Shown piece after piece: positions 54,497-54,785 of a stretch of 56,349 nucleotides of DNA (within the stretch, counting starts at the first letter, position 1; every line of letters begins with the position of its first letter). This DNA comes from a virus, in UHGV virus genome UHGV-0011358; one strand, written 5' to 3'. The notes under the pieces were generated by a model that searched no databases, was not told the DNA's origin, and was given only the letters and a program-made list of their open reading frames with translations. The position numbers were made by a program, and so were the translations under genes.

Positions 54497-54551
54497 AATC
54501 TGATCTCCGTATATCCTTGATGAAACTTAATAAAAAATCATCTTCGTTAAT

Positions 54552-54589
54552 TGCCGCACTTCCAGCGGCTGACCAGATTGTTAAAGAGC
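54552..54589 (-). promoter_or_regulatory. nutL-like site (boxA plus boxB hairpin)
   Basis: Minus-strand TGCTCTTTAACAATC (boxA consensus) followed by hairpin GCCGC-UGGAAGU-GCGGC. Confidence 0.45.
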
Positions 54590-54632
54590 AAGCAACCTTC
54601 TTTTCCCTGCCTTGCTACCTCCTTTGACTCGC

Positions 54633-54661
54633 AATATACGCCCCGTGATATACCGAGTCAA
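54633..54661 (-). promoter_or_regulatory. candidate PL promoter
   Basis: Minus-strand TTGACT-N17-TATATT between repressor stop and N-like gene. Confidence 0.45.
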
Positions 54662-54785
54662 TCCATTTTGTATACTTTTTTTAAAAATTTTATATCTCAT
54701 TGATATTTAAATGATAAAACACGTTTTTCTGTTTACGTTTTGGTGTTTTTATGGCAAAGAAAAGCCGCCATCCGGCGGCTAATGT

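Follow-up and report, generated by a model that had tools for sequence, protein, structure and literature searches.

Probable early N-type antitermination module of the Gp17/nut kind in an mEp021-like coliphage genome

Gene order and early signals next to the repressor gene

The window analysed here is the whole 56,349-nt stretch of the virus genome UHGV-0011358. A repressor gene is located on its minus strand at 54786..55432 and appears frameshifted at about position 55272, so that the phage in this window could have lost part of its capacity for a temperate life. From there, the order on the minus strand is a terminator-like hairpin, a putative promoter, a composite nut site (nut site 1), a gene for an N-like protein, a kil-like gene, erf and ssb, which is the synteny of the mEpimmI phage group (repressor, terminator, promoter, nut, gp17, kil, erf, ssb). 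An endonuclease VII-like gene, many small ORFs together with HNH genes, a stem-loop and nut site 3 follow on the same strand. Beyond nut site 3, the genes ninG (45553..46248), an HNH gene, rusA (44674..45087) and a gene for a Q-like late antiterminator (43766..44488; PHROG 127, E=7e-78) were found, all on the minus strand. The N-like and Q-like genes lie in one long transcription unit, and the replication genes in the divergent one. Downstream of the promoter, terminator-like sites are present on the minus strand at 52949, 51483, 49208, 49030, 46495 and 46128.

The region between 54100 and 55800 (1.7 kb) displays 91-96% nucleotide identity to the phages mEp010, mEp044, mEp013, mEp554, mEp021 and mEp515, and is partially matched by phage MagusPhagus. 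The six mEp phages are Mexican E. coli phages. This stretch is also carried by 30 of 5,426 complete E. coli genomes, where it is annotated only as 'hypothetical protein'.

A pattern scan located the terminator-like hairpin that follows the repressor gene at 54763..54780 on the minus strand (AGCCGCCGGATGGCGGCT, then TTTTCTTTG). Its counterpart bears a terminator annotation in mEp021 (TERM_1, score 100) as well as in the other mEp phages, and it may serve to insulate the N operon from transcription of the repressor gene. The predicted early promoter of the N-like operon (PL-like; 54633..54661, minus strand) consists of TTGACT (54661..54656), 17 nt and TATATT (54638..54633), with 10 of 12 consensus positions matched in a consensus scan. 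Since promoter-like sites in the region are not above shuffles (8 vs 11.4), the support for this promoter is its conservation. Both hexamers are invariant in seven mEp-group sequences (alignment A1), and two divergent relatives (L008, TTGACA-17-TATAGT; L009, TTGACA-17-TATATT) have kept the hexamers and the 17-nt spacing while the spacer sequence diverged. The near-consensus promoter TTGACT-N17-TATATT, noted in an earlier sequence-only reading of this DNA, is thus a real and conserved element, and a promoter function is likely.

The boxA of nut site 1 (TGCTCTTTAACAA; 54578..54590, minus strand) agrees with the rrn-type consensus UGCUCUUUA. Together with the next T, it matches the boxA-spacer of E. 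coli rrnG (ugcucuuuaacaauuua) at 14 of 14 nucleotides (PMC2724277, Table 1, Prasch et al.), which makes the earlier description as an rrn-type boxA accurate. About 40 nt separate TATATT from TGCTCTTTAACAA. In mEp021, mEp010 and mEp515 the boxA core is the non-consensus GCTCATTAA, yet the hairpin of site 1 is invariant. The spacer TCTGGTCA (54570..54577, minus strand) leads to the boxB hairpin GCCGC-UGGAAGU-GCGGC with a 5-bp stem (54553..54569, minus strand), as given by minimum free energy folding and by covariation. The TCTGGT of this spacer recurs at nut site 2, and TCCGG occurs at nut site 3. The folding energy of the hairpin is ordinary (z = +0.69). Directly 3' of the hairpin comes AAUUAACG, without a U-tract, which indicates that it is not an intrinsic terminator. 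The distance from the hairpin to the ATG of the N-like gene is 56 nt (54553 to 54496). In the sequence-only reading, a nutL-like site with a hairpin 6 nt after boxA had been proposed. The nut site and the hairpin both stand, but the first paired base lies 8 nt after the 13-mer, and by position the site corresponds to the one published as nutR1 in mEp021.

The Gp17 orthologue and its relation to N proteins

The N-like gene (54206..54496, minus strand), with GGAG 8 nt upstream of its ATG, encodes a protein of 96 amino acids which is 90% identical to Gp17 of mEp021 (mEp021_17) and 95-97% identical to the copies in mEp010 and MagusPhagus. The copy of MagusPhagus is annotated as 'anti-termination protein N-like protein'. 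The Arg-rich motif NARERRRIKRENERK spans residues 15-29 (codons at 54410..54454, minus strand) and holds R17, R19, R20, R21 and R24; R17, R19, R20 and R24 of Gp17 are conserved in all 48 mEpimmI genomes surveyed (PMC11893012, section 3.5). The ORF with an Arg-rich motif reported earlier to follow the hairpin was therefore confirmed, with the motif near the N-terminus.

A homologue search in a large protein collection returned 31 clusters with 59-95% identity, nearly all of them without a name, and contigs were taken for seven of the most divergent homologues. In an alignment of nine diverse homologues (A5), residues N15, A16, R17, R20, K23 and R24 are invariant. The C-terminal two-thirds of the protein (DKVxKAIRFANEERCK...KWYxENESGNYYHATQPRxLGEKPLDKVRYH) are more conserved than the Arg-rich motif in the same alignment, and by analogy with lambda N this part may contact both NusA and RNA polymerase.

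The ORF matches PHROG 271, 'anti-termination protein N-like', with E=1.5e-13. The same family includes P22 gp24 (E=6.9e-40) and lambda N (E=4.1e-23), both taken from GenBank records. Towards the P22-type Pfam model N_peptide, the ORF scored 15.5 bits and lambda N 16.4 bits, both below the cut-off of 27.9 bits, which suggests that the N-like protein is about as distant from this model as lambda N. Its first 20 residues align with those of P22 gp24 (MSVTIIYGKCDSKMNARERR vs MTV-ITYGKSTFAGNAKTRR). The pairwise comparison of the ORF with P22 gp24 gave E=0.016, and hhalign of the nine-homologue profile against P22 gp24 covered 46 columns with E=5e-4 at a probability of only 31%. The earlier statement that no N sequence is recognisable here is thus contradicted by the shared membership of PHROG 271 and by the alignment of the N-terminus with P22 gp24. 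A sequence search of the PDB with the 96-aa protein yielded no N peptide and only chance matches (E >= 0.059); the N peptides deposited there are shorter than such a search can detect.

Three composite sites and covariation of the site 1 hairpin

The window was scanned for a composite motif in which a hairpin comes 6-16 nt behind an exact GCTCTTTAA, the stem having 4 bp or more and the loop including GNRA. Three such composites were found in the window, all oriented with transcription, while none occurred in 200 dinucleotide shuffles. The exact GCTCTTTAA alone has four occurrences in the window, and matches with at most one mismatch are only mildly enriched (24 vs 15.2). The fourth exact copy (44556-44564, plus strand) was discarded as a nut site, being antisense to the ORF 44488..44670 and lacking a following hairpin. 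The five matches of a one-mismatch boxA plus hairpin (11353, 40407, 48059, 48521 and 527) have no GNRA loop, are at chance level (8 observed vs 3.8 +/- 1.9) and were rejected. No Rfam family reached its gathering score anywhere in the window.

Nut site 2 (55595..55628, plus strand; exact core at 55596) is composed of the boxA AGCTCTTTAAAAA, the spacer TCTGGTG and the boxB UCGCU-GCGA-AGCGA. It is located in a leader, about 70 nt downstream of a candidate rightward early promoter (PR-like; 55492..55519, plus strand; TTGACC, 16 nt, TAAACT; 9/12 in the scan) and approximately 100 nt before the first rightward ORF, which starts at 55736 on the plus strand and encodes an HTH, replication-initiator-like protein. 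In the promoter candidate, TAAACT is invariant and the -35 element reads TTGAYC in seven sequences (alignment A2) and in L008-L012. No cro-like ORF was found between the rightward promoter and nut site 2. Each of the 12 relatives examined has kept the site; that of mEp515 has U in place of the closing A and an unaltered GCGA core. A search for a matching nutR after the first rightward gene had been suggested in the sequence-only reading. The matching site does exist, but ahead of that gene, in the 5' leader.

Nut site 3 (46378..46411, minus strand; exact core at 46410), which had escaped the earlier reading, shares its strand with the N-like gene and consists of the boxA TGCTCTTTAAAAA, the spacer TCCGGCA and the boxB GCGC-UGAAAU-GCGU. 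It is identical in the four close relatives compared (mEp021, mEp515, mEp044 and MagusPhagus). Just upstream of it, a terminator-like stem-loop was read from the sequence at 46462..46495 on the minus strand (with its tail to 46458), made of a 15-bp stem, the loop AUGG and then UUUU. In position and in its length of 34 nt, this stem-loop agrees with the annotated TERM_4 of mEp021, and it is conserved in four relatives. A conserved 17-mer, which is found directly beside the PL-like promoter as well, precedes nut site 3 by 13 nt.

Within the seven mEp-group sequences (A1) the hairpin of site 1 is invariant, and these sequences are uninformative on its structure. In the divergent relatives, a boxA is followed by a hairpin with a differing stem at the same distance from the start codon. 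The stem is GCAC/GUGC in L008, GCUC/GAGC in L013, UCGC/GCGA in L009 and GCUAC/GUAGC in L010-12, L014 and L015, compared to GCCGC/GCGGC in the window. The stem has thus undergone compensatory substitutions in distant relatives, and the loop was kept as U-GNRA-U/A (U-GAAA-U/A). A MAFFT alignment of the boxA-to-boxB segments (A3) placed the 3' arm of the version with the 7-nt loop out of register. The covariation analysis was done instead with a register-correct alignment of the hairpin only (A4), which comprises eight distinct hairpins. Three of the five pairs have changed on both sides. Standard pairs make up 85% of the cells, against 61.8 +/- 4.5% in shuffles, and the covariation score is 0.657 against 0.177; none of the 500 shuffles reached the observed value in either measure. 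With slid registers, the paired fraction drops to 15-47%. Taken together, the covariation, the pairing above shuffles and the loss of pairing in slid registers demonstrate that selection maintains the structure of the site 1 hairpin.

N-type antitermination, rival readings and known systems

Phages of the mEpimmI group were described as Nus-dependent and non-lambdoid, with a need for host Nus factors (PMC11893012, Negrete-Mendez et al. 2025). According to the same article, which cites Valencia-Toxqui et al. (2023, Arch Virol 168:92), Gp17 was shown experimentally in 2023 to be the N-lambda-like protein behind early antitermination in mEp021. The targets of Gp17 are given there as three nut sites, namely nutR1 upstream of gp17, nutR2 downstream of a methyltransferase gene and ahead of ninF/ninG, and nutL beside the repressor gene. 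In PMC11739229, Gp17 was used only as a His-tagged control protein. The three composite sites of the window occupy the same relative positions, and sites 1, 3 and 2 were equated with nutR1, nutR2 and nutL by position, not by sequence match. The published nut names refer to a map drawn in the opposite orientation. Taken as one module, the promoter, the boxA, the hairpin and the Arg-rich ORF described here very probably serve early processive antitermination of the N type in a temperate, mEp021-like coliphage of the mEpimmI group. This agrees with the N-type antitermination advanced in the sequence-only reading, and the support comes from the orthology to Gp17 (90%), the three composite sites, the covariation of boxB and the match to PHROG 271. 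The Gp17/nut system of mEp021 is already known, and the module of the window is a close relative of it, not a new system.

The window and mEp021 share the Gp17 orthologue with its Arg positions, the synteny and three nut sites at equal relative positions. The boxB of site 1, the whole of site 3 and both the boxA core and the boxB of site 2 are identical, while one base of the site 2 spacer differs. The remaining differences are minor. Site 1 has a full rrn-consensus GCTCTTTAA in the window instead of GCTCATTAA, and the window is devoid of a structured insert of ~215 nt which lies between promoter and boxA in mEp021, mEp010 and mEp515; a search of Rfam with this leader insert of the relatives gave sub-threshold chance matches only. 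Directly upstream of site 3, the window carries an HNH endonuclease gene and not a methyltransferase gene, and its repressor gene is frameshifted, unlike that of mEp021.

In the proposed mechanism, transcription from the PL-like promoter (54661..54633) would produce a leader RNA with the consensus boxA about 36 nt in. The boxA would bind host NusB/NusE and the spacer NusA, with the boxB hairpin next. The first gene of the transcript would deliver the 96-aa N-like protein, whose N-terminal Arg-rich helix is predicted to bind the boxB loop, while the conserved region towards its C-terminus would keep the Nus factors attached to RNA polymerase. The polymerase modified in this way could read through the terminator-like sites of the long leftward operon, with its recombination and nin-like genes, up to the Q-like gene, which is presumed to be the ultimate read-through target. 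The same N-like protein might be loaded at two more sites, in the rightward replication leader and after the internal stem-loop that precedes ninG, rusA and Q. As the N-like gene and Q share one long unit and the divergent unit is that of replication, antitermination is plausibly needed to reach Q, set at site 1 and renewed at site 3. Both the Nus-factor contacts and the choice of the terminators overcome in this phage are inferred.

The exact rrn-type boxA raises the question whether boxA alone could act here as in rrn operons, recruiting NusB/NusE/NusG and other rrn factors against Rho-dependent termination, with the hairpin and the Arg-rich ORF being incidental. Beside the 14/14 match, it is known that the rrnG boxA-spacer RNA binds NusA much better than the lambda boxA-spacer, and that nothing more than the rrn boxA-spacer and a few residues upstream of it is needed to overcome Rho-dependent terminators (PMC2724277). 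The hairpin, however, is kept by compensatory changes in the relatives, and it is invariant in mEp021, mEp010 and mEp515 despite their non-consensus boxA. The operon also contains intrinsic terminator-like sites. Intrinsic terminators are poorly handled by rrn-type complexes. Moreover, a requirement for Gp17 is reported in PMC11893012. A boxA acting alone is thus quite improbable, although an rrn-like action of boxA could be a contributing layer of N-type antitermination.

Two further readings concern the hairpin itself. It might mainly be an operator of translation or processing for the downstream gene, through autoregulation or RNase III as in the lambda N leader, and its position only 56 nt upstream of the ATG would fit such a role. 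Translation of lambda N is reportedly controlled via the nutL leader, in work said to be that of Kameyama et al. from 1991. The boxA-spacer-hairpin composite, however, recurs at two places away from the N-like gene, which argues for a signal loaded on the transcript and not for a gene-specific operator, and makes the operator reading very unlikely; the site 1 hairpin might have such a role as a second, additional one beside antitermination, but not as the main one. Finally, chance could have placed a boxA-like word rich in A/T and a short GC hairpin near a promoter-like match, in line with the lack of enrichment of promoter-like matches, the mild enrichment of GCTCTTTAA with at most one mismatch and hairpin z-scores of about +0.7. 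Against this stand the composite count of 3 vs 0 in 200 shuffles, with all three oriented with transcription, and the conservation of the elements in 15 relatives with covariation in the stem. Chance co-occurrence was ruled out by the composite scan and the covariation, and its probability is regarded as negligible.

As judged from sequence, the N-type module seems to work like the N-nut systems of lambda and P22, and the protein belongs to the same family at the profile level. Shared with the lambdoid N systems are a small basic protein bearing an N-terminal Arg-rich motif and boxA-spacer-boxB early in both divergent operons. P22 gp24 is also in PHROG 271; the two proteins can be aligned over their first 20 residues, and in both the Arg-rich motif starts at about residue 14, but the overall sequence similarity is marginal. 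The nut RNA of P22 likewise has a CUUUA-type boxA (CGCTCTTTAAC) 8 nt from boxB, and its boxB (GCGCU GACAA AGCGC) has, as here, a GC-rich stem of 5 bp with a U after the 5' arm. Its loop is the pentaloop GACAA, whereas the loops here are U-GAAA-U, U-GCGA-A and U-GGAAG-U. In P22 too, the N gene is the first one of the leftward operon and adjoins the repressor gene. P22, however, has two nut sites, with nutR after cro, and its Q is on the replication side, while three sites are present here, the rightward one before the first gene, and Q follows the N gene, with which it shares the strand.

Lambda N has in common with the N-like protein the membership of PHROG 271, the Arg-rich N-terminus, the position of boxA-spacer-boxB near the start of both early operons and the dependence on Nus factors, which is here the one reported for the group. 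In contrast, the lambda boxA lacks the extra U (CGCTCTTA), the lambda boxB is GCCCU-GAAGA/GAAAA-AGGGC, and the Pfam model N36 is matched by lambda N and not by the N-like protein. The operon layout differs as well, since lambda has two nut sites instead of three and its N gene and Q are not in one unit as they are here. Phage HK022 is not known to have an N-like protein, and put, a cis-acting RNA of about 65 nt with two stem-loops, replaces nut. Antitermination of the put type was rejected for the window, where an N-like gene is present and the leader holds a boxA and one short hairpin, with no put-like double stem-loop. The rrn operons have the same 14 nt across boxA and the beginning of the spacer. 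In these operons no phage protein is needed and boxB is dispensable (PMC2724277), while here a covarying boxB is accompanied by an N-like protein.

All three boxB hairpins of the window have a GNRA core, as UGAAAU at site 3, UGCGAA (or GCGA closed by U-A) at site 2 and UGGAAGU at site 1. In the phage group, the versions of boxB display a G-N-R-A core flanked 5' by U and 3' by U or A, which corresponds to a hexaloop or to a tetraloop closed by U.U or U-A, while site 1 of the window has the heptaloop UGGAAGU. The loop size, with the fold read from sequence alone, differs from the pentaloops GAAGA/GAAAA of lambda and GACAA of P22, and this putative tetraloop-type geometry is the only detail that is possibly new. 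Across clades, both the stem of site 1 and the non-arginine residues of the Arg-rich motif change, and the boxB of site 2 is fixed in every clade examined. The residual novelty thus consists of the loop geometry and of the way in which the hairpin of site 1 varies together with the Arg-rich motif while site 2 is fixed. That the boxB of this phage group is read otherwise than that of lambda and P22 is a tentative and rather doubtful proposal. A separate and just as tentative idea is that site 3 might be fed by a regulated promoter of its own, as it comes just after the terminator-like stem-loop and 13 nt after the 17-mer that abuts the PL-like promoter.

The discovery value of the locus is low, as the experimental proof of Gp17/nut dates from 2023 and the survey of 48 genomes from 2025, and the window is a close relative. 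The N-like gene could nevertheless be named in the 30 E. coli genomes in which it now carries the label 'hypothetical protein', and the divergent metagenomic relatives are natural compensatory mutants of boxB, which support the published hairpin. The comparison of the loops offers a small testable question, namely in what way boxB RNAs of the tetraloop type are recognised by the Arg-rich motif of an N-type protein. If the proposed difference in boxB reading is true, one Arg-rich motif would recognise three different hairpins, which would amount to a relaxed or new mode of N-type recognition.

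Repeats and stem-loops of the early control region

The 17-mer ATCCATTTTGTATACTT is present twice in the window. One copy (54661-54677, plus strand) lies on the strand opposite to the PL-like leftward promoter and directly adjoins its -35 element. The other copy (46441..46425, minus strand) precedes the nut site 3 boxA by 13 nt and is oriented with transcription. Both positions are conserved in relatives, and the number of exact 17-mer pairs expected by chance in 56 kb was estimated by us at about 0.2. Because TGTATACT occurs within it, the 17-mer might represent a weak or extended -10 promoter; alternatively, it might serve as a protein-binding site.

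The repressor gene is flanked on both sides by a 12-nt near-palindrome, AAAACACGTTTT / AAAACGTGTTTT (54716-54727 and 55473-55484). The leftward -35 element is preceded by one copy at a distance of about 55 nt, and that of the candidate rightward promoter by the other copy at 8 nt. This near-palindrome, which is conserved only in part among relatives, may be an operator. The leftward promoter itself lies inside an inverted repeat with 14-nt arms (54624-54637 and 54648-54661).

Within the rightward leader, a long conserved stem-loop, GGCGGGAUC...GAUGCCCGCC, was identified on the plus strand (55648-55703), after nut site 2 and before the first rightward gene. It is devoid of a U-tract and may be either a variant of a terminator or a regulatory structure through which the nut-modified polymerase has to transcribe. 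Further to the right, the 22-nt unit GGGGTAGTGTCACAGAGTCACT is repeated in three tandem copies (56280-56346, plus strand; spacing of 23 and 22 nt) inside a replication-initiator-like gene that is cut short by the right edge of the window. These repeats look like origin iterons, similarly to those carried by the lambda O gene.

The promoter-boxA insert and Arg19 in relatives

In many relatives, the promoter is separated from the boxA of nut site 1 by a discrete insert of about 215 nt, which is absent from the corresponding region of the window (54633 to 54590). It was located at 3491-3736 of the mEp021 locus (L001) and was also found at six other loci (L002, L006, L010-L012 and L015), while a shortened version occurs at L014. 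The consensus of the insert folds at -74.9 kcal/mol and is closed by a long stem, GGCUUAACA...UGUUAAGCC; in one internal stem, three compensatory pairs between clades were detected (alignment A7). The insert has no match in Rfam. A 37-aa CDS, mEp021_16, is annotated inside the mEp021 copy.

Arg19 of the antiterminator Gp17 was reported to be fully conserved in 48 genomes (PMC11893012). The metagenomic homologue P0027 (locus L009) displays the motif NARTIRRMKRR, with Ile at the position equivalent to Arg19 (window 54440-54442; alignment A5), and the boxB of site 1 at its locus reads UCGC-UGAAAU-GCGA. The requirement for Arg19 is therefore not universal across the wider family.

The repressor frameshift and the endonuclease genes

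By comparison with mEp010 and mEp044, the cI-like repressor gene (54786..55432, minus strand) has lost one nucleotide from a run of G at about 55272-55273 (ATGCGGGCGC -> ATGCGGCGC), which breaks it into two ORFs of 85 and 148 aa. The gene is intact in all 13 relatives where it is in view (six mEp phages and seven fetched contigs), with a length of 215 aa in 12 of them and an annotated length of 198 aa in mEp021. The frameshift in the window could be a sequencing error in the homopolymer, or it could mark a clear-plaque-type mutant or a prophage in decay.

Three paralogous HNH endonuclease genes (51515..51979, 46550..47077 and 45029..45556, all minus strand), each assigned to PHROG 99 (E=1e-48 to 1e-61), and an endonuclease VII-like gene (52485..53129) are dispersed across the early leftward operon. 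In mEp021, the place of the HNH gene at 46550..47077, directly before nut site 3, is taken by a cytosine methyltransferase gene.

The gp17/nut module in E. coli genomes

The module composed of gp17 and nut site 1 was detected in 30 of the 5,426 RefSeq complete E. coli genomes in the form of chromosomal prophages, as exemplified by NZ_CP020520.1 (2707983-2708477). The underlying annotation is 'hypothetical protein' in every match listed; therefore, the published function has yet to enter genome annotation.
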